Below, piece by piece: positions 37,916 to 50,888 of a stretch of DNA of 64,000 nt. Position 1 is the stretch's first letter. Each line of letters begins with the position of its first letter. Made by a program: the position numbers and the translations under genes. The DNA is from a virus, in IMG/VR virus record IMGVR_UViG_3300037245_001077, positions 32,001 through 96,000 of that record. One strand, 5' to 3'. The notes beneath the pieces were generated by a model that ran no database searches, was not told the DNA's origin, and saw nothing but the letters and a program-made list of their open reading frames with translations.

Positions 37916-40683
37916 GTGTACGACGACAATAGCCGTATGGGGCTACATTTTCACATGTACTTCATTCCGTATATGCCACCTGCCGAGGTGACTAATCTAA
38001 TTATTGAGCAAATGGCTAAGGAGTATCGTAACCTTCAGATAAAGTGCAAAGCTTTTGATGATGCCTTAGCTGATCTGGAAGACCGTTATGCCGAAGAGAT
38101 GTATCCCAATCCAGATTGGGAAGAGAAAGATCTGTCAGAGAGGGACCAGGACTTGGTTTCCCGCATTAAAGGACAGACCGTTAGACTAGCTTGTGAGAAG
38201 CTCCGAAAGACTGCTGAGGAGCTGTGCAAGGCCAACGGGGTTATAAAAAGCTGAAAAACACTTGACTACATCCGCATCTTCATGTACCGTGGTACCTGGA
38301 GATGTGGAGTTGTGCCATGAGTGATTTCAAAGGAACCCTTGTTGTGACTATGCGATTCGACATACCTGTGCGTGCAGGTATGTACCAAACGGTGTTGAAG
38401 GAGAAGGGCGTAGTAACGCCTGACGATATCATTCGCATCGAAGAGCAGAATTACCTGGACAATGCGGACGACTACCTTGAGATCATGGGGGATCATGTGT
38501 CTGAAGTGTCATTTGATTTTCTGCCAGAGTCGAAAGGGGTAAAGCGTGAGTGACGATCTGTTGATTGACGATGATGAGTTGCTACCGGGTGAACTTGCTT
38601 TCACTTCTGCGGATCTCGAACGGCAAATAACAGACTTAACTGCGGTTTTGAAAAGGAAAGACGAGGAAGCCGAGCGTAGCTTGACTCAACTTCAACTCGA
38701 CGCTAACGCTGAGTATAAGCTGATAGTGAAAGAGCGACAGATGATTGAGGAGGAGCTAAATACTCTCAAAACCAACTTTGGGCGGTTAGAGGTAGAGGGC
38801 GAGAATATAAGTCTCGAAGGTAAACAGGTATTTGACCGTCTCGTGGAATTGGATAAAGAACGCATGATTGGGGTTCTGGCTATCCGCTTTCTCGCTCGAC
38901 GGATATCTGATGGTTTGATTTCTGTAGGTGCCTTACCCAATATCGACAAGAATATCTATGTGGCTCTTAGGGCGTGGGCAGAGAAAGCCACACCCCCCTT
39001 CTTTGAGGATGGCTGGCCCGAGGACAAGGCTCTTGGTGAGATACTAATGGAGATGTTTAAGGTTACTGGTACAACAGGTTCATATGCAAACATGTCTGGA
39101 AGGATCCAAGAGCTATTGACAGAGGATGAGAGCGAAGACTTCCAGAAGTACATGGACAAGGTACCGATTATTGACCCTCTTGGTATTACGAGTAAGACGG
39201 CTAGGCTGTACGCGAAGATTTCCCCTGAACTGGCAGGTGTCATACCTAAAGCACAAAGCTGGAAGCCTAGGGGGGCAGATGATATTTGAATGTGCAACTG
39301 ATGGATGTACAACTAAAACAGAGCGTAGAAGCCCTAGGCACAAGTACTGTGATGTATGTGCAACTAAAAGGAAGACCGACTATAATAAGGTTTGGTATGA
39401 AACTATTGGTGCTGAATGGAAGAGGATAAACTACTTAGAGAGCCGAGGGGGTATCCTTGTTACACCTAGAACACCGGAAGCTAAAGAGAAGACTAGACAA
39501 AGAGCTTTGAAAAGACACAGAGAGTACCAACAGCGGCCTGAGGTTAGAGAAAGACGTAAAAAATATGAGCAGCGGGCTAAAGTAGAGGAGCGTAATATTG
39601 GTTTGAGGGCAGAAATTATTGTTCTCCGCAGAGAACGCCGTCTTCAAGAGGAACGTGACGGTGGGAGACGTTTTTTTAGACGAAGAGCTAAAATTAGTGA
39701 GCCATATCTGCCAAAGCACCTTATATGGGGAAAGCCAGAAGAGGATGAAGTATCGTGAGCAAATCACAGGTTAGTAAGGAGCAGGTGGAGCACTTACATA
39801 AGAGTTGGCGCGGTAGGGGTGGGCGCAGTTCTCTGTATAACCTTGCTAAGAGACATGGAATAACCCTCAATGAAGCTTACGTGATTTTGAGTAGTCCCTT
39901 GCACGCTGCCACGAAGAGAGTGGAGATGGGGAAGAAGTTCGTGTCCTACAGGGAGAGATAATGCGAATCAAGGTCAATTGGTTTGTACGCTTCGTGGCTA
40001 AGGTGGCTAGAGTTGATCTTGATAGCTACGCCTGTGAGGACAAGAAGGACAAGAAGAGAGGCAGTGTAGACTTCAGTAAGGTAATGGCACAGCCGTTGCT
40101 ACCTCCCCGGCTTCAGTCAGACCTTAAGAGGATCATAGAGGAACAAGCAGAGCTAGCTGAGAAAATCACGGGGGTTAACCAACCACATACGGGAAGATCA
40201 CTAACGCAGGCTGGACAATGGAATGAAACAACCTTCACGGTTGGTACGGCTGAGGATCCCCAAGAGCTGTTAGAGAACATCTACTGGCCTGTGACTAAGG
40301 GTAATGGCCCTGGTGAGGTTACAGTAGACCCGTTGTCACAGGCGCGTGAGGATGCCCTTGAGGAGATCAATAGGCAGTACGCTATCCCTAAGGAGCTATG
40401 GGATAAGTTCAGGACTGAGGAGCAGATGGGGAAGTACTACCGGGAGCAGTTAGAGGAGTACATCCTTGCTAACGCACAGTCCGATGCCCCTCCACGTACT
40501 ACAGCGAAAGAGTATGCCGAGGTGGTGTATAGAGCCTTACAGAGAATGAGTGGTGTAGAGACTCCTCCCCGGCTTCAGTTCTCCCCCACACAGGACAAGC
40601 TGATAATCAGCCCTCCTCCGCCTGATCTAGAAGATGATTTGGGCGTAGATGGATGCGAGATACCAGAAGAGATGTTTGATTAG
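37916..40683 (+). other. Hypothetical ORFs (37916-38254, 38317-38553, 38546-39289, 39279-39758, 39755-39961, 39961-40683)
   Basis: Coupled + strand ORFs. Confidence 0.65.
38262..38290 (+). promoter_or_regulatory. Sigma70-type promoter
   Basis: TTGACT-N17-TACCGT. Confidence 0.4.
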
Positions 40684-41016
40684 TATTATGTTATGTATAC
40701 ACATGACATAGTTATTAACTATAGAACTTCTTTGTTTTCAGCCACTTACAAAAAGCCATGTCAGTTTTGTATATAAACGTACTTGCAGTATGTCCAATTT
40801 ACCGAGGTTACCCGGCGTTATAAGGGTATTTTATTACATAAAATGCATTTAATGTTATTATGTGTATGAGTTACAATGATTATAATCTGTAAGTTCTTTA
40901 GAATCAAGAGGTTAAAAAGTAATAAATACTACATTTAAGATACATAAGGTTTATAAGCCCGGATAACCTACATAGTTATCGTTCATTAGATGCTTTTAGT
41001 GCGAATCAAAAATGAG
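40684..41016. other. AT-rich non-coding region (candidate origin or recombination site)
   Basis: No ORF, strongly AT-rich, IHF-consensus AATCAAGAGGTTA at 40902-40914. Confidence 0.35.
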
Positions 41017-41017
41017 T

Positions 41018-41091
41018 ACCCCTGTAGCTCAATGGTAGAGCGTGGTCCTTATAAGGCCGTGACCCGAGTTCAACTCTCGGCAGGGGTACCA
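41018..41091 (+). tRNA. tRNA-Ile(UAU)
   Basis: Acceptor ACCCCTG/CAGGGGT, loop CT-TAT-AA, encoded CCA. Confidence 0.85.
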
Positions 41092-41092
41092 C

Positions 41093-41122
41093 TTGACAAC
41101 TTCGATACTTAGGTGGTATCGT
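41093..41122 (+). promoter_or_regulatory. Sigma70-type promoter for tmRNA
   Basis: TTGACA-N18-TATCGT with an extended TG. Confidence 0.55.
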
Positions 41123-41144
41123 GTTCCTAGCTTATACAGCACGA

Positions 41145-41175
41145 GGGAGGAAGGACGCGATGCGACCAACCTCCC
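41145..41175 (+). repeat. Conserved stem-loop motif, copy 1
   Basis: GGGAGG-AAGGACGCGATGCGACCAA-CCTCCC; second copy at 42897-42929. Confidence 0.55.
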
Positions 41176-41195
41176 GCCATGGTCTTTCAAAATAT

Positions 41196-41536
41196 GGGGG
41201 CGCACTGGTTTTGACAGGGATGTTTGACGAGAGGGAGAAGCGTGTCGTGTTTGCTTTCGGCGTTAACGAAGGCTACTCGTTTAGTTGACGAATTTGAACA
41301 ACTACCCTTAGCGGCATAGTTCCGCTAACGTGGTCCTAGAAACTCCACCTATCTGGAGACCACGCTATTAGGTGGGCTGAGGTTTCCGTGCTCCATTTGC
41401 AGAGGAAGGCGTAAAGCTCATGTAGGTTAACTTCCTCATCTTAAAAGTAGGGCTTGCTTGAGCCTATCAAGCTACACACGTAGAAGGCTCTTAGATCCTT
41501 CCTTGGACGTGGGTTCGATTCCCACCGCCTCCACCA
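41196..41536 (+). ncRNA. ssrA: tmRNA, tag peptide (A)DEFEQLPLAA*
   Basis: 5' GGGGGCG..TTTGAC, 3' GGTTCGATTCCCACCGCCTCCACCA, G3-U70 pair, tag ORF 41287-41319. Confidence 0.95.
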
Positions 41537-41554
41537 ATTTTTTAAGGAGACAAG

Positions 41555-41872
41555 ATGAAGTTAATCACACAAATTCCCGAGGTAGGTATCCTTCCGAATG
41601 GTTTGTGGTGGAAGTATGTCCCCGTAAGGGATGATTTTTTTCATTTCGCTATAGGTTTTTGTTGGCGTTGGGGGAAACCCTACTACGATGAGTTTGATAT
41701 GAAGGAGAAGGACTTCTCCAGAGGGTTTCGCACGTCTTTACGATTGGTGAAAAAAGGTAGAGAGTATCGACTTATTCCTGAGCTTTTCTTTTGGGAAGAA
41801 GGCCAACAGTATGGGACGAAGCAGTGGTTTGATCGTAAGCTTTGGAGAACGACCGAAAAAATATCGGATTAG
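41555..41872 (+). CDS. Hypothetical protein
   Basis: AAGGAG SD, 105 aa. Confidence 0.65.
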   Translation: MKLITQIPEVGILPNGLWWKYVPVRDDFFHFAIGFCWRWGKPYYDEFDMKEKDFSRGFRTSLRLVKKGREYRLIPELFFWEEGQQYGTKQWFDRKLWRTTEKISD

Positions 41873-41875
41873 GGG

Positions 41876-41940
41876 TTGACAAATCCTAAAACATATCCGA
41901 TACTAACTACCTTGCATGTAAATGCAACGATCTTTGACAT
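41876..41940 (+). promoter_or_regulatory. Promoter plus boxB/boxA-like antitermination leader
   Basis: TTGACA-N17-GATACT; hairpin TTGCAT-GTAA-ATGCAA; GATCTTTGACAT. Confidence 0.6.
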
Positions 41941-41944
41941 TCAG

Positions 41945-42815
41945 GATATGGCCACATGGGGTCATTAAGGAAACAGGGGAGTAATCCCCTGGAAGGGGTA
42001 ACGAGAGTGTTACGCTCGCCCACCTATCTTCGGGTAGGCCCATCCATGAGAATCGCGGGTAGCCCGAGCCACGGGTGGGTACGTGTGCCCTAACCTGAGG
42101 AGCAAGGTGATTGTACGGTGGTGCTAGATAAGGGACAAACCGGGTCTTCGGGCCACAAGGTAGCTCTTATCGATTCCTAGCAGGGATGCTAGGTAATCAT
42201 CGATCCAATTGTGAATCAGGCCACTCCTAAGCGATAGATACCTTAGTCCGAGGAAATGGCAAACCTAGGGCGGGGTAGCAGTACCATTGAGGTTTGGGCG
42301 GAATTCCCAAAAATCAAGAAGTACGGGTAAAGGGACAGCTAGTCTCGAATGCCAGGGCGCGTGTTGTATTTTGTGGCTCAAAAGGCTACGAAGCGATGGA
42401 CAGGGCACGAACCCAGTGACATTATCACCGTGAAATTCGCCTAATAGCAAGGCGTTTGGCCTTAGGACCAAAAGATGAGGGTGCAATTCCTTCATTTCAC
42501 TTCAAAACGATAAGGAAAGTCCCTGTCGGTCGCTAAGCGAAAGGGGCCTAAGCCTCTCCCCGCAAGGGAAGGGAGGCCACCGAAGCTCCCAAGGCTGAAA
42601 GTGGTCAATGTGGAAATGAAGACCTTGAGACGGCCATCTCAGGACGGACTGGAAACATCGAGTCGCGGAGCGATGACGAAGGAAATGCTACCTTCTTAAA
42701 AAAGCGGTCCTGGTCGAATACTGGAGAGATCCGGTGGATAAGTTGTTAACTGAAGGATGGAACCTTAGGGTACGGCAACAAAAGGTTGACCACAATAATG
42801 GGTAGTCTCACCATT
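41945..42815 (+). ncRNA. Large structured ncRNA, GOLLD-like (boundaries approximate)
   Basis: ~870 nt with no credible ORF, many tetraloop hairpins (UUCG, GCAA, GUAA), own promoter, next to tRNAs, internal tRNA-like domain; family assigned from recalled sequence features. Confidence 0.7.
42430..42504 (+). pseudogene. Degenerate tRNA-like element inside the large ncRNA
   Basis: GTGAAAT/ATTTCAC acceptor, D and T arms, 8-nt loop CCTTAGGA, ends TCA rather than CCA. Confidence 0.65.
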
Positions 42816-42896
42816 TTCTTTTATTCTCTACCAGTGGTAGGGAATCTTCAAAGGCTCGGTGGTGCCCGCCTGGACGAAACCACCCTATTTTGTCCC

Positions 42897-42929
42897 TAGC
42901 GGGAAGAACGCGATGCGCCTAACCCGCTA
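42897..42929 (+). repeat. Conserved stem-loop motif, copy 2
   Basis: TAGCGGG-AAGAACGCGATGCGCCTAA-CCCGCTA. Confidence 0.55.
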
Positions 42930-42946
42930 AATTTTGGTTGTAGTGT

Positions 42947-43021
42947 CGCGGAGTGTAGCAGCGGTAGCTAAGCTGGCTCATAACCAGATGGTCGGGGGTT
43001 CGAATCCCCCCTCCGCAACCA
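42947..43021 (+). tRNA. tRNA-Met(CAU), initiator-like
   Basis: C1:A72 mismatch, loop CT-CAT-AA, CCA. Confidence 0.85.
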
Positions 43022-43070
43022 AGTTTAGGGGGTGTTCTTTCACCCCTTTTCTTTATTGTCTGGAGAGAGT

Positions 43071-43223
43071 ATGACCCGCAACGCTTTGATCCAGGCTATT
43101 ATCGAGATGGTTACATCTTCTTTACCCAAGAAGATAACGTTGACCAAGAAGATTGGCAAGGATTTGTGGGTAACGGATACGAAGAGAATGCTCGCCCTTA
43201 TGAAGAAGAAGAGGAAGAAGTAA
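43071..43223 (+). CDS. Basic protein, MTREELIE family
   Basis: MTRNALIQAIIE N-terminus, Lys/Arg-rich. Confidence 0.65.
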   Translation: MTRNALIQAIIEMVTSSLPKKITLTKKIGKDLWVTDTKRMLALMKKKRKK

Positions 43224-43224
43224 C

Positions 43225-43590
43225 ATGACCCGCGAAGAGCTTACCGAAGCCATTGTTGAAGCAGTTATCGGTTCGCACGAGGCGGGTGTAGCTATCAATA
43301 CCATGTACAACCAGCATCCAAAGCTCTTTAAGAAAATAAACAAGTGGGAATCAGGGAAACGACGGCGTTTGCAGGTTATGAGAAAATTACGGTTGTCTAA
43401 GGATGACGATTTTGATATTAATGATAAGGCGGTAAGCCACTCTACACGCAAAGCGCATAAGTGGTTGTCTAAACGAAAGAATCCGTTAAATCGGACGTTT
43501 CAGGATCGGGTAAAGGCCGTAACTCGTAAGCCTTCAAAGCAAGTAGCGAAGGACGCGCATTACAATATGCGTTCTAGAATGACTTATTAG
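43225..43590 (+). CDS. Basic protein, MTREELIE family
   Basis: MTREELTEAIVE N-terminus. Confidence 0.8.
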   Translation: MTREELTEAIVEAVIGSHEAGVAINTMYNQHPKLFKKINKWESGKRRRLQVMRKLRLSKDDDFDINDKAVSHSTRKAHKWLSKRKNPLNRTFQDRVKAVTRKPSKQVAKDAHYNMRSRMTY

Positions 43591-43600
43591 AGGAAATAAC

Positions 43601-43642
43601 ATGTTCGTGACAACGATTAAAACCGAGGAGGAAAAGATCTAG
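43601..43642 (+). CDS. Leader peptide 1 (MFVTTIKTEEEKI) of tRNA operon 1
   Basis: GAGGA SD; the last 10 codons are Thr/Ile/Lys/Glu, matching the downstream tRNAs. Confidence 0.85.
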   Translation: MFVTTIKTEEEKI

Positions 43643-43647
43643 GATAG

Positions 43648-43698
43648 CCCTGGACATACCTTCGGTGTATCTCCAGGGACCGTAAGGTCTCTTTTTTT
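43648..43698 (+). terminator. Attenuator 1
   Basis: Antiterminator CCCTGGA/TCCAGGG overlaps terminator AGGGACC-GTAA-GGTCTCT-T6. Confidence 0.85.
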
Positions 43699-43708
43699 GT
43701 GTCTATGA

Positions 43709-43782
43709 GCCGGTGTAGCATAATGGCAATGCGCGTCTCTTGTAAAGACGGAGATCCAGTTCAACTCTGGCATCCGGCTCCA
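43709..43782 (+). tRNA. tRNA-Thr(UGU)
   Basis: CGTCT-CTTGTAA-AGACG; slightly irregular acceptor/T junction. Confidence 0.8.
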
Positions 43783-43787
43783 ATATT

Positions 43788-43862
43788 CACCCTGTAGAAC
43801 AATGGTCAGTTTACCGGGCTTTCAACCCGATGATCGGGGTTCAACTCCCCGCAGGGTGACCA
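43788..43862 (+). tRNA. tRNA-Glu(UUC)
   Basis: Loop CT-TTC-AA, CCA. Confidence 0.85.
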
Positions 43863-43866
43863 ACTT

Positions 43867-43942
43867 GGCGGTGTCTGCTAACGGTTAGGCAACATGGTTC
43901 TCACCCATGAAATGGCGGGTTCGATTCCCCCCACCGTCACCA
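43867..43942 (+). tRNA. tRNA-Glu(CUC)
   Basis: CATGG-TTCTCAC-CCATG, CCA. Confidence 0.85.
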
Positions 43943-43954
43943 TAGGAGATCAAC

Positions 43955-44107
43955 ATGAACGGCGACCGAAACGACAAGATGTCCGAACTCATGCGAGCAA
44001 TTCGCTGGGGGTGGGACTGTATGTACCCTGTCCGTATCAAGGGTAGTGAGAAACGTCGTTTGCGTCGAAAATACCGTCACGATGCTAAACGTGAGATAGC
44101 CCTGTAG
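43955..44107 (+). CDS. Small basic protein (50 aa) ending inside tRNA-Ile
   Basis: AGGAG SD, MNGDRNDK...REIAL*. Confidence 0.55.
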   Translation: MNGDRNDKMSELMRAIRWGWDCMYPVRIKGSEKRRLRRKYRHDAKREIAL

Positions 44108-44172
44108 CTCAGTGGTAGAGCAGAGGGTCGATAACCCTCGTGTCCGTGGTTCGAATCCACGTGGGGCTACCA
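44098..44172 (+). tRNA. tRNA-Ile(GAU)
   Basis: GAGGG-TCGATAA-CCCTC (C33), CCA. Confidence 0.85.
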
Positions 44173-44179
44173 TTTACAC

Positions 44180-44255
44180 ACCCCCATGACGCAACTGGCA
44201 GCGTAGCTGGCTCTTAACCAGTATGTTGAAGGTTCGACTCCTTCTGGGGGTACCA
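44180..44255 (+). tRNA. tRNA-Lys(CUU)
   Basis: Loop CT-CTT-AA, CCA. Confidence 0.9.
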
Positions 44256-44258
44256 TGT

Positions 44259-44333
44259 GGGATCGTGGCGCAATGGAAGCGCAACAGGCTTTTAACCTGA
44301 ATGTTGAGAGTTCGAGTCTCTCCGGTCCCACCA
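44259..44333 (+). tRNA. tRNA-Lys(UUU)
   Basis: Loop CT-TTT-AA, CCA. Confidence 0.9.
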
Positions 44334-44365
44334 CCTTCTTCCTTCTTTATTTCTTGGGAGATGCT

Positions 44366-44599
44366 ATGACCCGAGAAGAACTTATTGAAGCCATTGTTGA
44401 AGTGATGCAGCGAAGTAAACATCCTCTAACGGGTGGTCATTTCAGTTTTCCTCCTCCTATGAAAACAAGAGCAGGGCAGTGGACAAGACGGAAGCGTTTG
44501 AGGGTTGTTTCTGGTGCTATGACAGGTAAAGACCCTAGCATAACGAAATCTATGGCTTTTGCTTCTGAAATAGCTCGAAGAAAACGAGCAAACAAATAG
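44366..44599 (+). CDS. Basic protein, MTREELIE family
   Basis: MTREELIEAIVE N-terminus. Confidence 0.8.
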   Translation: MTREELIEAIVEVMQRSKHPLTGGHFSFPPPMKTRAGQWTRRKRLRVVSGAMTGKDPSITKSMAFASEIARRKRANK

Positions 44600-44610
44600 A
44601 GGATTAAAAT

Positions 44611-44844
44611 ATGACCCGTGAAGAGATTATTGAAGCCATTATCCTTACTGAGTTCGAGCCTTTGACTATGATTGCTGCTGGTGCGGCTACTGGTTACGCG
44701 GCTAGAAAGTTGAGAAACCGTTATAGCGTTAAAGGAGCCACAGGTGCGGCTAAGAGAAGTTCGGCTATCTCGAAGGCATATGCGAAGAAGGCTGAGCGGC
44801 ATACCGCAAGGGCAAAGTTCCTTACTGCTAGAAAGAACGCATAA
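44611..44844 (+). CDS. Basic protein, MTREELIE family
   Basis: MTREEIIEAIILTE N-terminus. Confidence 0.8.
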   Translation: MTREEIIEAIILTEFEPLTMIAAGAATGYAARKLRNRYSVKGATGAAKRSSAISKAYAKKAERHTARAKFLTARKNA

Positions 44845-45944
44845 TGACCCGAGATAAGATTATTGAAGATATTGTTGAAGGCTACGTCAAAGATGTGCTC
44901 ACTTACGATTTGAGTAAGCATCATCCTAGACCCCATGAGCGCTTCCGCTTCAACAACGCAGCCCGTAAAGCCAAAGAGAAGGCACGGGAAGTGTTTAGGA
45001 ACAAAGCCAAGAGCGCACATGATACTCAACCTATTGACGTTTCCAAGTTTGTATCCAAATCTACAGCTCGTAGGGCACCGGGGATCAAAGTCCCCAAAAG
45101 CTATCGCCCTAAACTTAAGATGAGTTCAGCTAGGCGAAAGGGTCCAACCGTTCGCCAACAGCAGGGCAGAAAAGCAGTGTTGGGTGCAGCGGCAGCTATT
45201 GGTGCGGGTATGGTGGCTCATAAGGCGTACAAGTACCATAAGGCCAAAAAGAAAAGAGAGATGCGTGAAGGCTTGATTGAGGCCCTTTCTACTCATAAGG
45301 TCTACAAGGCTAGGATGTTTTCAAAGAAGCCACAATCTTATGCTAAAACAATGACTTATTGGCAAACTCCAGAACAGAAGAGTTTAAAAGCTGTTAAGAA
45401 AAAGATTCCCGTGGTTTCTTTAGAGTTAAGGAGTAAAAAGGATAAGTCTACCCATCAGGTGTCGCTTGCTCCAGATCCTCGTAAGAGGCTTTGGGGGAAA
45501 TTGGCAAAGATGCAGGGGTTTGACCCTAAATCAAAGAAAGCAACGCTTAAACGACGGGCGTTTTATCGTTTGCGTAAGAACAAGTACAAGGTTGTTGAGG
45601 GTGACCTAGGGGACTTCGCTGTAGCCCCAACCGCAGCCGTAGACGCTTCCCCGATCCATAAAGAGCAGAGGGATCGGTATTGGATGATCAAGAACCGTAA
45701 GAAGATCAAGAACATGATAGTGAAAGAGGTTTTTGACGACACCTATGGTTCGAGCGTGCTTGACCGAGCAGCACGGGTGGAAAAATCTACAAACTTTATT
45801 GCTAAGGCGAAAAAGCTTAAAAGCCTTGTTGGTAAGGCGAGAAAGCTTACTAAGGATTATGAGCTTGGTATGTACCACGGTGCGGGCAAAATGTCTAAGA
45901 TGAATATCTCTTTGGGTAACAAAAAATTTGGGAAGATAGGGTAG
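44844..45944 (+). CDS. Large basic protein, MTREELIE family, with internal copies of the motif
   Basis: MTRDKIIEDIVE; internal MREGLIEAL and RKKIKNMIVKE. Confidence 0.85.
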   Translation: MTRDKIIEDIVEGYVKDVLTYDLSKHHPRPHERFRFNNAARKAKEKAREVFRNKAKSAHDTQPIDVSKFVSKSTARRAPGIKVPKSYRPKLKMSSARRKGPTVRQQQGRKAVLGAAAAIGAGMVAHKAYKYHKAKKKREMREGLIEALSTHKVYKARMFSKKPQSYAKTMTYWQTPEQKSLKAVKKKIPVVSLELRSKKDKSTHQVSLAPDPRKRLWGKLAKMQGFDPKSKKATLKRRAFYRLRKNKYKVVEGDLGDFAVAPTAAVDASPIHKEQRDRYWMIKNRKKIKNMIVKEVFDDTYGSSVLDRAARVEKSTNFIAKAKKLKSLVGKARKLTKDYELGMYHGAGKMSKMNISLGNKKFGKIG

Positions 45945-45952
45945 GGGTTAAC

Positions 45953-46225
45953 ATGACACGCGAAGAAGTGATTGAAGCCATTGTATACGAGATGACGCAA
46001 GAGAAAAAAGATAAGTGGAAGTCTCGTGCCAAGAAAACTGCAATCGGGGCTGGTATAATTGGAGTAGGTGTTCTTGCTACGAAAGCTCCTAAAGCTAAGC
46101 GTTATCATGCTTTAGGTAAAAAGGTGTCTTCTACGGTGGATAGTAGCGCTTACAGACAAGCTTTGGTTTCTAAGAACAAATATGGATTGCATGTTGACAA
46201 ATACTATGGTTCTTCTTCTTTTTAA
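45953..46225 (+). CDS. Basic protein, MTREELIE family
   Basis: MTREEVIEAIVYE N-terminus. Confidence 0.8.
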   Translation: MTREEVIEAIVYEMTQEKKDKWKSRAKKTAIGAGIIGVGVLATKAPKAKRYHALGKKVSSTVDSSAYRQALVSKNKYGLHVDKYYGSSSF

Positions 46226-46228
46226 GGC

Positions 46229-46257
46229 TTGACAACGGTAACAAAAGATGCCATACT
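46229..46257 (+). promoter_or_regulatory. Sigma70-type promoter of tRNA operon 2
   Basis: TTGACA-N17-CATACT with an extended TG. Confidence 0.7.
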
Positions 46258-46266
46258 AAATCAGTA

Positions 46267-46326
46267 ATGAAGAATTTTCTATATACCCTCGTTGATTGTG
46301 TAGCCCACTTTGATAGTTGGCTTTAG
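46267..46326 (+). CDS. Leader peptide 2 (MKNFLYTLVDCVAHFDSWL) of tRNA operon 2
   Basis: 13 of 18 codons are F/L(CUN)/Y/V/D/C/A/H, the downstream tRNA set. Confidence 0.85.
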   Translation: MKNFLYTLVDCVAHFDSWL

Positions 46327-46377
46327 GGGGGTTTTTGTCTTTTCGTCTTTGACACCCCCTGCACAAGGGGGTTTTTT
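46325..46377 (+). terminator. Attenuator 2
   Basis: G-run at the stop codon can pair with ACCCCCT; terminator ACCCCCT-GCACA-AGGGGGT-T5. Confidence 0.85.
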
Positions 46378-46384
46378 AGTATTC

Positions 46385-46461
46385 GGGGGTGTAGTCTAGT
46401 AGAGTAAGGCCCTGGATTGTCAGTCCAGTGATCGCCGGTTCGAGTCCGGTCACTCCCGCCA
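46385..46461 (+). tRNA. tRNA-Asp(GUC)
   Basis: CTGGA-TTGTCAG-TCCAG, G73, CCA. Confidence 0.9.
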
Positions 46462-46462
46462 A

Positions 46463-46474
46463 GTTCTTTGAAAA
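46463..46474 (+). promoter_or_regulatory. boxA antitermination site
   Basis: GTTCTTTGAAAA. Confidence 0.65.
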
Positions 46475-46481
46475 TTAGTGT

Positions 46482-46566
46482 GCTGAGGTGGCGAAGTTGG
46501 TAGACGCGCTGGTCTTAGGAACCAGTGTCTTCGGGCGTGTGGGTTCGAATCCCTCCCTCAGCACCA
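46482..46566 (+). tRNA. tRNA-Leu(UAG)
   Basis: CTGGT-CTTAGGA-ACCAG, long variable arm. Confidence 0.92.
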
Positions 46567-46577
46567 AAATATCGTGT

Positions 46578-46653
46578 GGGCTGTCATGTTCCAAGGGGGC
46601 GAGGAGCACTTGCAATGCACCTGTGGAGGGTTCGATTCCCTTGCGGTCCACCA
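46578..46653 (+). tRNA. tRNA-Ala(UGC)
   Basis: G3-U70, loop CT-TGC-AA; atypical D arm. Confidence 0.78.
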
Positions 46654-46657
46654 AGTT

Positions 46658-46731
46658 GTGAGGGTAGTGTAATGGCAGCACGAGAGTTTGTGGCACTCTC
46701 AGAGCGGATTCAAATTCCGTCCCTCACCCCA
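46658..46731 (+). tRNA. tRNA-His(GUG)
   Basis: AGAGT-TTGTGGC-ACTCT, C73; position -1 is T, not G. Confidence 0.85.
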
Positions 46732-46811
46732 GTTTCGGTTTTGGGGGTCCGACACAGTGTTACAAGCTACCTCAGAGGTAGTTCAAGGGCACTCTACAAA
46801 ATCCCCATTTG

Positions 46812-46885
46812 AGGGTGGTGGCCGAGAGGCTAGGCAGGGGACTGCAAATCCTTTTACGCGGGTTCAAATCCCGCCCACCTTTCCA
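46812..46885 (+). tRNA. tRNA-Cys(GCA)
   Basis: Loop CT-GCA-AA, U73. Confidence 0.9.
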
Positions 46886-46886
46886 T

Positions 46887-46972
46887 GCCAGTATAGACCT
46901 CTATGGAGGGGGGACGGGTTGTAGCCCCGTTGTTGCAAGGCCCGCAAGGTTCGATTCCTTGTACTGGCACCA
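46887..46972 (+). tRNA. tRNA-Tyr(GUA)
   Basis: ACGGG-TTGTAGC-CCCGT, long variable arm. Confidence 0.85.
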
Positions 46973-46975
46973 TTT

Positions 46976-47051
46976 GCCTCTGTAGCTCAGGTAGTAGAGC
47001 GCGAGACTGAAGATCTCGGCGTCGGGGGTGCAAGTCCTCCTGGGGGCACCA
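46976..47051 (+). tRNA. tRNA-Phe(GAA)
   Basis: CGAGA-CTGAAGA-TCTCG. Confidence 0.9.
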
Positions 47052-47054
47052 TTT

Positions 47055-47130
47055 AGGCAGGTAGCTCAGTTGGTAGAGTTGCTGGTTTACACCCAGTCTG
47101 TCATCGGTTCGAATCCGGTCCTGCCTACCA
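47055..47130 (+). tRNA. tRNA-Val(UAC)
   Basis: Loop TT-TAC-AC, CCA. Confidence 0.9.
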
Positions 47131-47192
47131 TTCACTTTATTGTTTGGGGTATGTATGTTTCGTGAAGATTATTTTATAAAACGGGATAAAAT

Positions 47193-48068
47193 ATGACGGA
47201 TAGAAATTTAGATTATGACTATGCTGCAAAGCAACGAGATATTACTCGTGAGCAGTATGCTAAAGGAACATATATTTATGCTGGTTATAGTCCTGCAACA
47301 CCTTTAGTGTGGAATGTTGAGGATCAGCCGATTGGCTCAGGTGCTCCGGCAAACGTGTTTGACGCCTGGGGCGAGGACTTGGAGGTCCGGGCGATCCCTG
47401 TGGATGGGAAAGAGCCGCTGACGCCGTTCACCAAGGAGCTTCATGCAAAAACAGGGAACCCTGGATATCTCTATGGGCTGTACTTCACATTATTGCTCGA
47501 TGGTTTTGATATTGATTTGAATAATGGTAAATTCCGGGTTGAAATTGTGGCTCGGCATGTTGTCCCAGATCCAGAATTTCAGCCCGGTCAATACTTACAG
47601 CTTGGTGAGGACGACTATTACCCAGAATGGGATACGTGGCGCATGTTCAAAGCCGGGTTTCTTTCTGAAGAGTCCGGCGAAAGTGATGTTCAATCTTGGC
47701 ATTGGGAGTTTGGTGGTGAACTATATAATTCGTTCTATGACTACAAGGTAAACTGGGAGTTCGGAACACCAATTGTCGGATACACTATCCACCAGATCGA
47801 GGTGGATTTCCAAGCTGGCGTGTTCGAGCAACGCATCGTTGGTCATTGGGCAGGAGATCAAGGAGAGCAATCATCTTGGTGGGTTAAGGCTCCTCGCGCC
47901 GCTGAATTTCCGGCTGGAGAACAGTCAGCACAGACGCTCATATTATGGCTTCAAGATAAAAACAGCGGAGAGGCGATGGTTACTCAGCTTTGGCTTGGCC
48001 CAATTACTGACCCATTCCCAAATGGCGCGGTTTTGACATCGAATATCGGGTTTGGAAATAGTTCTTGA
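47193..48068 (+). CDS. Aromatic beta-rich protein, paralog of 52656 and 53515
   Basis: Shared C-terminal W-x-G-x3-D-x-F/W-P motif. Confidence 0.7.
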   Translation: MTDRNLDYDYAAKQRDITREQYAKGTYIYAGYSPATPLVWNVEDQPIGSGAPANVFDAWGEDLEVRAIPVDGKEPLTPFTKELHAKTGNPGYLYGLYFTLLLDGFDIDLNNGKFRVEIVARHVVPDPEFQPGQYLQLGEDDYYPEWDTWRMFKAGFLSEESGESDVQSWHWEFGGELYNSFYDYKVNWEFGTPIVGYTIHQIEVDFQAGVFEQRIVGHWAGDQGEQSSWWVKAPRAAEFPAGEQSAQTLILWLQDKNSGEAMVTQLWLGPITDPFPNGAVLTSNIGFGNSS

Positions 48069-48093
48069 CAAGCCCTTTATTGGGTGTTAGAGT
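48065..48093 (+). promoter_or_regulatory. Sigma70-type promoter of tRNA operon 3
   Basis: TTGACA-N17-TAGAGT with an extended TG. Confidence 0.7.
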
Positions 48094-48102
48094 GATTAAG
48101 TT

Positions 48103-48171
48103 ATGAAGAGATTATCCTCAAGGTTGTGGCAACAGAGCGGCTCGAATCCGAGTCGCCCAGGAGAGCTGTAA
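48103..48171 (+). CDS. Leader peptide 3 (MKRLSSRLWQQSGSNPSRPGEL) of tRNA operon 3
   Basis: 18 consecutive codons for R/L(UUR)/S/W/Q/G/N/P, the downstream tRNA set. Confidence 0.88.
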   Translation: MKRLSSRLWQQSGSNPSRPGEL

Positions 48172-48172
48172 C

Positions 48173-48236
48173 TAAGGGGTAAAGATGCCAATTCGCCCGT
48201 TCCGTTCTTACCCCCTAGTACAGTAGGGGGTTTTTT
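48173..48236 (+). terminator. Attenuator 3
   Basis: Antiterminator GGGGTAA/TTACCCC overlaps terminator ACCCCCTA-GTACAG-TAGGGGGT-T5. Confidence 0.85.
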
Positions 48237-48246
48237 ATTGATCTAA

Positions 48247-48258
48247 GTTCTTTGAAAA
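48247..48258 (+). promoter_or_regulatory. boxA antitermination site
   Basis: GTTCTTTGAAAA, identical to 46463. Confidence 0.65.
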
Positions 48259-48271
48259 CAAAAAGTTATGT

Positions 48272-48348
48272 CCGAGAATGGCGCAGTTTGGCAGCGCACT
48301 TGGTTTGGGACCAAGGTGTCGAAGGTTCAAATCCTTCTTCTCGGACCA
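48272..48348 (+). tRNA. tRNA-Pro(UGG)
   Basis: CTTGG-TTTGGGA-CCAAG. Confidence 0.92.
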
Positions 48349-48349
48349 T

Positions 48350-48434
48350 GGAAGGTACCGTCTATGGAGACAAGCGGTTTTGAACACCGTAGGCACGTGT
48401 AAGCGCGGGGGTTCGATTCCTCTACCTTCCTCCA
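48350..48434 (+). tRNA. tRNA-Ser(UGA)
   Basis: Loop TT-TGA-AC, long variable arm. Confidence 0.85.
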
Positions 48435-48444
48435 AGTTGTGTGT

Positions 48445-48519
48445 TCGGGCATGGTGTTAGTGGTAGCATACGAGGTTTCCACCCTCTGGGGCCGGGTTCG
48501 AGTCCTGGTGCCCGAACCA
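48445..48519 (+). tRNA. tRNA-Gly(UCC)
   Basis: Loop TT-TCC-AC, CCA. Confidence 0.85.
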
Positions 48520-48529
48520 AAATTTATGT

Positions 48530-48603
48530 AGGGGTATAGTGAAATGGTATCACGGCAGATTCCAGACCTGCTTTTCCGGGTTCAAATCCTGGTACCTCTG
48601 CCA
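48530..48603 (+). tRNA. tRNA-Trp(CCA)
   Basis: Loop TT-CCA-GA, G73. Confidence 0.88.
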
Positions 48604-48609
48604 AAGATT

Positions 48610-48698
48610 GGAAGGGTGGCTGAGTGGTAACAGCGCCGGGTTGCTAACCCGAGGCCGCGCTTCGGCGTGCGAGGGTTCGATCCCCTCTCCTTCCTCCA
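48610..48698 (+). tRNA. tRNA-Ser(GCU)
   Basis: Loop TT-GCT-AA, long variable arm. Confidence 0.9.
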
Positions 48699-48703
48699 AG
48701 TGT

Positions 48704-48816
48704 TGAACGGTGTGGCGTGGCAGCGTCAGGTTTTCCGTTAAGGAGATCATCCCTCCACTGCCTAATCGGAGAATGATGGGAGCTGGGTGGGGAATCCAGC
48801 CACCGTTCACTTTTTT
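48704..48816 (+). ncRNA. Unidentified structured RNA inside tRNA operon 3
   Basis: Closing stem TGAACGGTG/CACCGTTCA, internal hairpins, T6 tail; not a cloverleaf. Confidence 0.5.
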
Positions 48817-48818
48817 GA

Positions 48819-48895
48819 GGCCCTGTAGCTCAGCGAACAGAGCATATGGCTACGAACCATAGTTGTCGGGGGTTTGAATCCCTCCAGGGCTTCCA
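48819..48895 (+). tRNA. tRNA-Arg(ACG)
   Basis: TATGG-CTACGAA-CCATA. Confidence 0.88.
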
Positions 48896-48898
48896 TTT

Positions 48899-48974
48899 GC
48901 ACCCGTGGTCTAATGGCAAAGGCACTGCGTTTCTACCGCAGCAGATGTGGGTTCGACTCCTACCGGGTGTTCCA
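48899..48974 (+). tRNA. tRNA-Arg(UCU)
   Basis: CTGCG-TTTCTAC-CGCAG. Confidence 0.88.
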
Positions 48975-48984
48975 AAACTTATTC

Positions 48985-49063
48985 GGCACGGTAGCTTAGC
49001 ATGGCCTAAAGCAGTAGTTTGTTAAACTAATGATCGTAGGTTCAAATCCTACCTGTGCCGCCA
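48985..49063 (+). tRNA. tRNA-Asn(GUU)
   Basis: Loop TT-GTT-AA, G73. Confidence 0.88.
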
Positions 49064-49069
49064 AATTTT

Positions 49070-49156
49070 GCTGGAGTGGCTGGAATTGGTATACGCAGGG
49101 GACTTAAAATCCCTGGCCGAAAGGTCGTGTGGGTTCGACTCCCACCTCCAGCACCA
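49070..49156 (+). tRNA. tRNA-Leu(UAA)
   Basis: Loop CT-TAA-AA, long variable arm. Confidence 0.92.
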
Positions 49157-49161
49157 GCTAT

Positions 49162-49238
49162 GCCGCTCTGGGCCAATTGGTAGAGTCGGGGGTCTCAAAA
49201 GCCCTTTGTTCCGAGTTCGAATCTCGGGGGCGGCACCA
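49162..49238 (+). tRNA. tRNA-Leu(CAA), short variable loop
   Basis: Loop CT-CAA-AA, A73, 5-nt variable loop. Confidence 0.82.
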
Positions 49239-49241
49239 TTT

Positions 49242-49317
49242 AGCGGAGTAGCTCAATTGGTAGAGCACTGGACTCTGAATTCAGTTGTTGTAGGTTCAAA
49301 CCCTACCTCCGCTGCCA
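49242..49317 (+). tRNA. tRNA-Gln(CUG)
   Basis: Loop CT-CTG-AA. Confidence 0.88.
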
Positions 49318-49392
49318 TTTTGATTGCAGAAACTGACACTTTTTGGTAGGTTACGCGAATGAAAAGCACTGTTTGTGGTCATAATGACTACT

Positions 49393-49468
49393 AGGGGAGT
49401 AGCTCAATTGGTGGAGCAACAGGCTTTGAACCTGTTGGATGTGAGTTCGAACCTCACCTCCCCTTCCA
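49393..49468 (+). tRNA. tRNA-Gln(UUG)
   Basis: ACAGG-CTTTGAA-CCTGT. Confidence 0.88.
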
Positions 49469-49497
49469 TGTATACTTTATTGAAGGCCATGTGTGCT

Positions 49498-49677
49498 ATG
49501 GACACTTTTATCGTTTTGCTAATTGGGGTTGTCGCTTTGATAGCGATTGCTATGGGGTTGAGTGACCGATACTCTCCTCCTTGTCCGAAATGTGGAAAGG
49601 GTCTTAAGATTCTAGGAGCAGACTATCTATGTATCTCGTGTGACAGGGTTTACTCAGAGGATGAAATTCCAACTTAG
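49498..49677 (+). CDS. Small TM plus zinc-ribbon protein
   Basis: TM helix then CPKC...CISC; start codon uncertain. Confidence 0.5.
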   Translation: MDTFIVLLIGVVALIAIAMGLSDRYSPPCPKCGKGLKILGADYLCISCDRVYSEDEIPT

Positions 49678-49693
49678 TTGTGGCTGCAAAGGC

Positions 49694-49722
49694 TTGACAA
49701 ACAACCCTACACCATCTATGAT
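49694..49722 (+). promoter_or_regulatory. Sigma70-type promoter
   Basis: TTGACA-N17-TATGAT. Confidence 0.7.
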
Positions 49723-49810
49723 TCTAGTGCTATGACAACTGGAATTCTTCACCAATCTATTCATTTGCCCGCCTCTTTAGGTGGGCCTTGCTGTTTAAGG
49801 AGGAAAAACA

Positions 49811-50194
49811 ATGAAGTTGTATGTTTTGTTTGAGCAACCGGATGAAACGTATCCGGGGCAGTATGCGCCGTTAGCCGTTACGGTACTCGATGAGTACACT
49901 GTGGATAATTCCGGAAGATCGCTTCACGAGGCTCAGGAGGCAGAACTTGCTCGTCTTTCTATGAAGGAAGGGTTTGATCCTACAGATGCTAAGTGGGCCT
50001 GGGTTGAGGTGGATCTTGGTGTGACTGAACAGTTGATCCGAGATGCTATTCTTCAGCCTGCCCTCGCTGTCCAAGGTGTAGTAGCAGTTCCGGCTGCTCC
50101 TCAAGGGCAGAAACACCCTTCTTATCAGGCCATTACCGTGACTAGAGGAAGGCCAGGAGCAGGAAGAATTGTTGACGATGAAATTGTGGAGTAA
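49811..50194 (+). CDS. Hypothetical protein
   Basis: AAGGAGG SD. Confidence 0.75.
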   Translation: MKLYVLFEQPDETYPGQYAPLAVTVLDEYTVDNSGRSLHEAQEAELARLSMKEGFDPTDAKWAWVEVDLGVTEQLIRDAILQPALAVQGVVAVPAAPQGQKHPSYQAITVTRGRPGAGRIVDDEIVE

Positions 50195-50197
50195 CCC

Positions 50198-50500
50198 ATG
50201 CCCAAGTATAAACGTTATGGGTATGTGGTGGTGGAAAGGTTCTCAAAGCCTTTCGGATTAGTGGCATGTACAAATGTTGGCTTTCACCTTAATCCCCAAA
50301 AAGCGCAGGAACAGGTTGATGCTATAATCGAGTCCGCTGGAGAGGGTAAAGTCGTTGCAGATGAAACAGTTACAGGCAAAGACGATTTTGTCCCCTCTAT
50401 CCGTCGTCATGTCTTAATTGAATACCCTGGTCACGAGACTCTCCAGGTTCTCATCCAGCGATGGTATGTGGAGGTTGGGAGAGATCGCCATGGGGGATAG
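50198..50500 (+). CDS. Hypothetical protein
   Basis: GGAG SD. Confidence 0.65.
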   Translation: MPKYKRYGYVVVERFSKPFGLVACTNVGFHLNPQKAQEQVDAIIESAGEGKVVADETVTGKDDFVPSIRRHVLIEYPGHETLQVLIQRWYVEVGRDRHGG

Positions 50501-50888
50501 CTATTATGAGAGTGCGCTGTTACGTCTTCGAAGGGTAGCTGCCTACTTGTCCTTGCGGTATGGCGACGTTGTCAAACACAAAGGTCTTACCCCAGTTCAG
50601 TATGAGGTTTTACTCTACGTGGATTCGTGCTTTCCCTTTTGTTCGGTGTCTGAAGTAGCGCAATTTATGGTGGTAGATAAGTCCACCTCGTCACGGGTGC
50701 TACGTGGGATCGAAGGAAAGGGACTCATACGTATTGTTCACGATACCGAAGATCGTAGAAAACGCCAAGTCATATTGACGAATGAAGGAACAGGCGTTGT
50801 GGACGATTGTCGTAAAGCGTGGATGGTGGTTGAGAAGGATGTTAGGACTAAATACGACGATGCCATTGAGCATCTGGAAATCACTTAG
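50490..50888 (+). CDS. MarR-family transcriptional regulator
   Basis: GLTPVQYEVL...VDKSTSSRVLRGIEGKGLI...EDRRKRQVILTNEG. Confidence 0.9.
   Translation: MGDSYYESALLRLRRVAAYLSLRYGDVVKHKGLTPVQYEVLLYVDSCFPFCSVSEVAQFMVVDKSTSSRVLRGIEGKGLIRIVHDTEDRRKRQVILTNEGTGVVDDCRKAWMVVEKDVRTKYDDAIEHLEIT

Follow-up and report, generated by a model that had tools for sequence, protein, structure and literature searches.

The 64,000-nucleotide window analysed here (bases 32,001 to 96,000 of the IMG/VR virus record IMGVR_UViG_3300037245_001077, a single contig of 176,533 bp with 47.8% G+C) carries on its plus strand, at 46229-47130, a promoter, a short open reading frame (ORF), a terminator and a block of eight tRNA genes, together referred to below as unit 2. 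This unit is probably a functional, multivalent leader-peptide transcription attenuator of the eight-tRNA block that senses tRNA supply. An attenuator had been proposed here in an initial annotation, and that reading is supported computationally by the block-specific codons of the leader, the layout of the elements, an antiterminator hairpin that excludes the terminator, occlusion of this hairpin by a ribosome at the stop codon, and repetition of the arrangement at two other tRNA blocks (units 1 and 3). The anatomy of unit 2, its codon match and its alternative hairpins were computed.

The unit begins with a σ70-like promoter at 46229-46257, which has the -35 element TTGACA (46229-46234), a spacer of 17 nucleotides (nt) and the TG-extended -10 element CATACT (46252-46257), and which matches the consensus at 10 of 12 positions with TG before the -10. 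From this spacing, transcription is predicted to start near G46264, about 3 nt before the ATG. The leader ORF (46267-46326) has 19 codons, from the ATG at 46267 to the TAG at 46324-46326, and encodes the peptide MKNFLYTLVDCVAHFDSWL. Region 2, the 5' arm of the antiterminator (46324-46339), consists of the UAG stop codon fused to GGGGGG-U and followed by UGUC; the first of the six Gs is the last base of the stop codon. Region 3 (46351-46360), GACA plus ACCCCCU, is the antiterminator 3' arm and the terminator 5' arm in one. The intrinsic terminator (46354-46377) has a 7-bp stem with five G-C pairs, a 5-nt loop and a T6 tract, its arms being ACCCCCT (46354-46360) and AGGGGGT (46366-46372). The initial annotation had the ORF, its peptide and 13 listed codons right, as well as the TGTC (46336-46339) and GACA (46351-46354) that extend the pairing; the stop-fused G-run that it described is present and pairs with ACCCCCT, with its span corrected to 46326-46331 from 46325-46331. 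The terminator ends 7 nt before the first tRNA gene, a gap that leaves no room for a promoter, and this candidate was rejected. Across the three units the distance from terminator to first tRNA is 7-40 nt, and no promoter intervenes.

Eight tRNA genes follow on the plus strand, seven of which are called by both ARAGORN at default settings and Rfam: tRNA-Asp(GTC) (46385-46461), tRNA-Leu(TAG) (46482-46566), tRNA-His(GTG) (46658-46731) and, after 46811 and up to 47130, tRNA-Cys(GCA), tRNA-Tyr(GTA), tRNA-Phe(GAA) and tRNA-Val(TAC). The eighth is a non-canonical tRNA-Ala(TGC) at 46578-46653, which ARAGORN finds only at a lowered threshold (-ps80) and for which the best Rfam match is to a tRNA-clan model (19 bits, E of 0.17), below the standard thresholds. 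It has G3:U70, a UGC anticodon, a CCA end and a good T arm; as the sole alanine candidate in the genome, it would complete the 20-amino-acid set. Between tRNA-His and tRNA-Cys there is a structured 80-nt spacer (46732-46811, plus strand), which forms a long stable hairpin (-25.2 kcal/mol, z of -2.8) and in which neither ARAGORN nor Rfam finds a tRNA.

Thirteen of the 18 non-start codons of the unit 2 leader are read by tRNAs of the block behind it: codons 4-6 and 8-16 (F L Y. L V D C V A H F D) and codon 19. This count takes U34 to read a whole four-codon box; under strict wobble the number is 11. The initial claim that the leader covers all eight downstream tRNAs is borne out in that each is represented, with the qualification that the alanine tRNA is non-canonical and only seven are called at default settings. 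Under a null drawn from the phage's own codon usage, such a match with full coverage has P ∼7e-5, and the leader is the only one to reach its score among the 1,729 small ORFs of the genome (all ATG ORFs of 10-30 codons in six frames). On the basis of this uniqueness and of the codon-usage null, a chance ORF was rejected. There were few ORFs to choose from: the 320 nt upstream of the unit 2 block hold only two ATG ORFs of 7-45 codons, and only two to three candidates stand upstream of each tRNA block. The annotation had also seen a preference for U-ending wobble codons, which does not hold as a meaningful feature: six of the seven G34-read codons end in U, compared with a genome share of 0.52 (P ∼0.08).

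Each of the leaders of units 1 and 3 is likewise the genome-wide unique best for its own block among the 1,729 ORFs, with P values under the codon-usage null of 1e-5 (unit 1) and <3e-6 (unit 3). The matrix of leaders by blocks is diagonal: against blocks 1, 2 and 3, leader 1 matches at 10, 2 and 0 of 12 codons, leader 2 at 2, 13 and 3 of 18, and leader 3 at 2, 1 and 18 of 21, and every tRNA of a block is represented in its own leader (6 of 6 in unit 1 and 12 of 12 in unit 3). Taken together, the three matches have a probability of <1e-13; a small correction for the limited number of candidate ORFs is not included in this figure. Two unrelated phages taken as controls, Aeromonas phage 65 and Vibrio phage Luma, have no comparable ORFs before their 16 tRNA groups.

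In the minimum-free-energy fold of the full unit 2 leader, the G-run and ACCCCCU are paired. Taken alone, the antiterminator is at -14.1 kcal/mol versus -12.9 kcal/mol for the terminator; the corresponding values are -16.6 versus -9.9 kcal/mol in unit 1 and -15.4 versus -14.1 kcal/mol in unit 3. Compared with shuffles in which the terminator arm was held fixed, the antiterminators have P values of 0.016 (unit 1), 0.0055 (unit 2) and 0.001 (unit 3), that of unit 2 beating 99.4% of the shuffles. Over the whole leader the terminator and antiterminator states are only ∼0.7-2.2 kcal/mol apart in all three units, as expected of a switch. The 5' arm of the antiterminator begins 0-8 nt after the stop codon in three of three units; in unit 2 it starts at the stop codon itself, so that a terminating ribosome would cover it.

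The leader codons that match no tRNA of the block fall at telling positions, and their placement was not built into the codon-match test. Taking the ribosome to reach ∼12 nt past the first A-site base, the last codon at which the antiterminator arm stays free is codon 12 in unit 1, codon 16 in unit 2 and codon 20 in unit 3. The 3' non-matching codons all lie past these points (codons 17 and 18 of unit 2, codons 21 and 22 of unit 3), where a stalled ribosome would itself occlude the arm. Apart from the ACC of unit 2, the remaining non-matching codons are codons 2-3. A candidate region 1 (46285-46295, plus strand, ACCCUC GUUGA, codons 7-10) would pair with the G-run in the terminator state: the G-run pairs back to ACCCUC-GUUG both in folds of the growing transcript and in the fold with the terminator enforced (-31.1 kcal/mol). 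This pairing may explain why ACC is the lone internal non-matching codon, and a stall at codons 2-3 would free region 1 to sequester the G-run.

From these elements we infer translation of the leader, a stall-dependent switch and its natural trigger. Transcription would start from the promoter at 46229-46257 and ribosomes would translate the 19-codon leader. With prompt reading, a ribosome at UAG would cover the G-run, ACCCCCU would pair with AGGGGGU and RNA polymerase would stop 7 nt before tRNA-Asp. A ribosome stalled in mid-ORF at a Phe, Leu, Tyr, Val, Asp, Cys, Ala or His codon, its cognate tRNA being scarce or uncharged, would leave the G-run free to pair with ACCCCCU once the latter is made; the terminator would then be blocked and the polymerase would enter the tRNA genes. 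The tRNAs so produced would end the stall and close a negative feedback loop. A leader that has one or two codons for each tRNA should respond best to the severe loss of any single tRNA.

The sister units lie on the same strand on either side of unit 2. Unit 1 (43601-43698) has the leader MFVTTIKTEEEKI, with a GAGG Shine-Dalgarno sequence 7 nt upstream of it, an antiterminator at 43648-43678 and a terminator at 43675-43692 followed by T7; it precedes tRNAs for Thr, Glu, Glu, Ile, Lys and Lys. Unit 3 (48065-48237) has a promoter at 48065-48093, a leader at 48103-48171 (MKRLSSRLWQQSGSNPSRPGEL) of which all 21 codons are different, an antiterminator from 48171 and a terminator at 48210-48231 followed by T6; it precedes 12 tRNAs. 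Units 2 and 3 have in common their promoter spacing, a GU(A/U)AUGAAGA (MK) start, a stop codon followed by a G-run, and the terminator, and the bodies of their ORFs are unrelated. This combination suggests, from comparison of the two sequences, a duplicated frame that was rewritten for a different tRNA set. A strong hairpin within leader 3 (48134-48157) includes the sequence GGCTCGAATCC, which differs at a single position from the tRNA T-loop consensus GGTTCGAATCC; the hairpin may be the relic of a tRNA or a site at which the polymerase pauses.

Diverged relatives are available for unit 1. Two Logan contigs are 87% identical to it over 650 nt, and in the 121-residue gene upstream 26 of 122 codons differ synonymously and one non-synonymously. 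In the leader, codons 4-12 are unchanged; the changes are synonymous at codons 2 and 3 and replace Ile with Ser at codon 13, and these three codons are the ones irrelevant under the attenuation model. That three changes should fall on exactly those three of 12 codons has a chance of 1 in 220, the third codon having been defined after the alignment was seen. Seven pairs of the terminator stem are preserved, by a double change of A-U to G-C and by a G-C/G-U swap, and the antiterminator stem has a G-C to G-U change. The relative (L023, 1245-1421) also has a promoter (TTGACT, 17 nt, TATAGT), an AGGAGG and a Cys-rich ORF after tRNA-Glu(UUC), where the window carries tRNA-Glu(CUC). Its tRNA-Thr is far more diverged than the flanking gene. 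On such comparisons the tRNA island appears to be under rapid rearrangement.

For unit 2 itself the searches returned little that has diverged. No diverged relatives were found using flanking proteins, capsid or leader patterns. The flanking proteins of 291 and 240 residues have no useful relatives in viral contigs or in the protein collection, the one homologue being situated in an unrelated structural module, and the 90-residue protein upstream was found only in identical copies. The same unit 2 flanking protein is present in the Logan contig SRR11832402, and cluster members at 90% identity are present in a Logan sample. A DNA pattern at the level of the leader 2 peptide had no matches in viral contigs and 23 chance matches inside unrelated genes in metagenome contigs; the leader 1 pattern had no matches in viral contigs. 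Relatives identified through the capsid (76-90% identity) either are fragments on which no tRNA lies or have four scattered tRNAs that no leader precedes.

Several observations weigh against attenuation as the function of unit 2. Neither the unit 2 leader nor the unit 3 leader has a Shine-Dalgarno sequence; together with the predicted 5' untranslated region of ∼3 nt, this means that their translation is assumed only. The GCC (Ala) and CUC (Leu) matches require U34 to read C, and the leader provides just one or two codons for most tRNAs of the block, which would make it less sensitive than the codon runs of the his or phe leaders. In the tRNA-Ala the D stem is weak and the anticodon stem contains an A/A mismatch. 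The one other copy of unit 2 that was read (JGI contig L024) is identical and thus offers no covariation. The relative of unit 1 has a gene after the second tRNA, and yet its leader keeps the Ile and Lys codons, and in a more distant relative, with a capsid 81% identical, the four tRNAs are scattered and none stands behind a leader of this kind. The other points of this kind, two results from folding, are given below.

Some of these points would fit an arrangement in which the terminators are insulators or the ends of small RNA (sRNA) genes, the tRNAs are expressed constitutively by leaky read-through or from phage-specific promoters, and the ORFs are untranslated and match by chance or composition. 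The missing Shine-Dalgarno sequences of units 2 and 3 are in keeping with this, as is the promoter-to-terminator unit of ∼110 nt, the shape of an sRNA gene; the distant relative has a strong, G+C-rich but otherwise plain terminator directly before tRNA-Gln (L021, 8140-8210) with no codon-matched leader, and the A-rich composition of the unit 1 leader biases it towards codons for Lys, Glu, Thr and Ile. Chance or composition is difficult to reconcile, however, with the joint match probability under the codon-usage null, the uniqueness of each leader among the small ORFs, the diagonal matrix and the conservation of the unit 1 core codons at synonymous sites, and there is no space for a promoter between terminator and tRNA. 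We regard this arrangement as very unlikely.

The folding results that weigh against attenuation concern unit 2. Its free, untranslated RNA is at -33.2 kcal/mol in the antiterminator state and at -31.1 kcal/mol when the terminator is enforced, unlike classic attenuators, which terminate without translation. When the bases under a ribosome were masked, the equilibrium folds of unit 2 were mostly the terminator, by 2-3 kcal/mol, which is not decisive; the switch must then be kinetic, with the antiterminator forming first during transcription. The same treatment of unit 1 gave the textbook pattern, with the terminator for a ribosome at the stop codon and the antiterminator when it was stalled at codons 4-8 or 10-12, and that of unit 3 gave this pattern in part. 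The failure of the unit 2 folds to flip cleanly to the antiterminator would be understandable if the leader were translated and codon-matched while control took another route, such as protection from Rho or RNase, stall-triggered cleavage with transfer-messenger RNA (tmRNA) or pacing of RNA polymerase, competition for the G-run not being the switch. The phage does have its own tmRNA 5 kb upstream, and the strong hairpins within the ORFs could be pause or processing sites. We nevertheless consider such a route unlikely, as three independent antiterminator hairpins abut stop codons and beat their shuffles, the two states are nearly isoenergetic, the unit 1 terminator is kept by compensatory changes, and the simpler classic model accounts for the positions of the non-matching codons.

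If unit 2 is an attenuator, its trigger can be proposed only tentatively. Each leader may be a 'codon checklist' that detects the loss of any listed tRNA and switches on the phage copies, so that tRNAs would be replaced on demand; we put this forward as a possibility short of an even chance, and the three sensors together cover 26 tRNAs of the island. The natural trigger might, with similar reserve, be the loss of host tRNAs, through defence nucleases and anticodon nucleases or through host shut-off and phage-induced decay. It is pure conjecture whether the signal sensed is nuclease-driven tRNA loss, queuosine status or ordinary charging. A classic attenuator that reports general amino-acid starvation through uncharged tRNA, and so tunes the tRNAs and the 291-residue gene to host nutrition rather than to defence, would look the same at the sequence level, since uncharged and missing tRNAs both stall the ribosome. 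Between tRNA-Val and this gene (at 47193) no terminator was seen, so the gene may be co-regulated. An extra tRNA is no help when its amino acid is missing, however, which would make such feedback futile, and single codons should suit an all-or-none loss better than graded charging; control by nutrition is rated as quite improbable.

Unit 2 resembles the enterobacterial leaders thrL (Thr/Ile), ilvL (Ile/Leu/Val), trpL, hisL, pheL and leuL in its short ORF enriched in regulatory codons, in the stop codon beside the antiterminator 5' arm, in its mutually exclusive antiterminator and intrinsic-terminator hairpins and in an output that would be read-through into the operon. The pairing of region 1 with the G-run would be the counterpart of the optional 1:2 pairing within the ORF of the trp leader. 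The enterobacterial leaders regulate biosynthetic enzymes and carry runs of codons for one to three amino acids, whereas unit 2 would regulate tRNAs and covers eight amino acids, each by one or two codons; units 2 and 3 are also virus-borne and, by appearance, nearly leaderless. Another parallel is the pheM leader of Escherichia coli pheST, which encodes phenylalanyl-tRNA synthetase; here attenuation acts on a component of the translation machinery and aminoacyl-tRNA supply is fed back on itself. That leader is cellular and controls a synthetase in response to one amino acid through a run of Phe codons, whereas unit 2 is viral and would control eight tRNAs. By prediction, unit 2 has the structural hallmarks of leader-peptide attenuators (a codon-enriched ORF, a terminator with no intervening promoter, an exclusive antiterminator and the ribosome geometry). 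It falls outside the class as described, in which biosynthesis enzymes or synthetases are regulated, in that it would regulate eight tRNAs; the novelty of unit 2 is in the regulated genes and is not a failure of mechanism.

T-box riboswitches share with unit 2 a 5' leader, a choice between terminator and antiterminator, the reading of tRNA status and the control of translation-related genes. Their contact with uncharged tRNA is direct, by way of a specifier codon and the conserved T-box sequence and with no ribosome involved, and the unit 2 leader is far too short for this. A T-box or other known riboswitch was rejected, as Rfam gave no cis-regulatory match in 40000-50500 at E values up to 0.1.

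The contig is that of an uncultured phage, with nearly all genes on the plus strand; it encodes a major head protein and a tail sheath, which makes it a myovirus, and the capsid of the nearest cultured phage is only ∼35% identical. The three units lie in an RNA island (41018-49468) in which ARAGORN finds 27 tRNAs and one tmRNA, and which also holds one GOLLD RNA (ARAGORN and Rfam). Block 1 is Thr-Glu-Glu-Ile-Lys-Lys, block 2 is Asp-Leu-(Ala)-His-Cys-Tyr-Phe-Val and block 3 has 12 genes; tRNA-Ile(UAU) and tRNA-Met are solitary and outside the blocks. The tmRNA (41196-41536), with the tag peptide DEFEQLPLAA, is upstream of the tRNA blocks and could rescue ribosomes stalled by tRNA loss. Between it and tRNA-Met is the GOLLD RNA (42354-42814; Rfam RF02032, 161 bits), which contains a tRNA-like element at 42430-42501; GOLLD is absent from an 87% relative (L022), where tRNA-Met comes immediately after the tmRNA.

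Interspersed among the tRNA blocks, at 43071-46225, is a family of small, very basic proteins (ORF starts at 43071, 43225, 44366, 44611, 44844 and 45953) which share the N-terminus MTR(E/D/N)..I(E/Q)AI(V/I) and diverge afterwards. The relative L022 has a 285-residue protein with an MTR-type motif internally, and a 366-residue family member, the only one scanned, has no Pfam match. A MarR-family regulator (50418-50888; Pfam PF12802 and PF01047) lies ∼1 kb 3' of the last tRNA; in a Logan relative it is conserved beside the genes for proteins of 127 and 100 residues. A small ORF, MIIICKFF... (40876-40938), carries ATT-ATA-ATC as its codons 2-4 and stands 80 nt 5' of the solitary tRNA-Ile(UAU); as no terminator follows it, this is probably chance.

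It has been proposed that phage tRNA sets stand in for host tRNAs lost to degradation or to cleavage by anticodon nucleases, and these proposals give a likely biological reason for an inducible, full phage tRNA set. To our knowledge, accounts of phage tRNAs treat their expression as part of the normal temporal programme, and tRNA genes are thought to respond only to growth rate and stringent control. A full-text literature search found no description of leader-peptide or demand-sensing control of tRNA genes in phages or elsewhere. The element is ∼150 nt long and self-contained, which makes a reporter test easy, and it could act as a compact sensor of tRNA availability. If confirmed, unit 2 would extend leader-peptide attenuation to tRNA genes and would show that a virus gauges, one codon at a time, the capacity of its host to decode. 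It would also explain in mechanistic terms when phage tRNAs are made and for what reason, and it bears on the debate as to whether these tRNAs serve to match codon usage or to replace host tRNAs destroyed in infection and defence.

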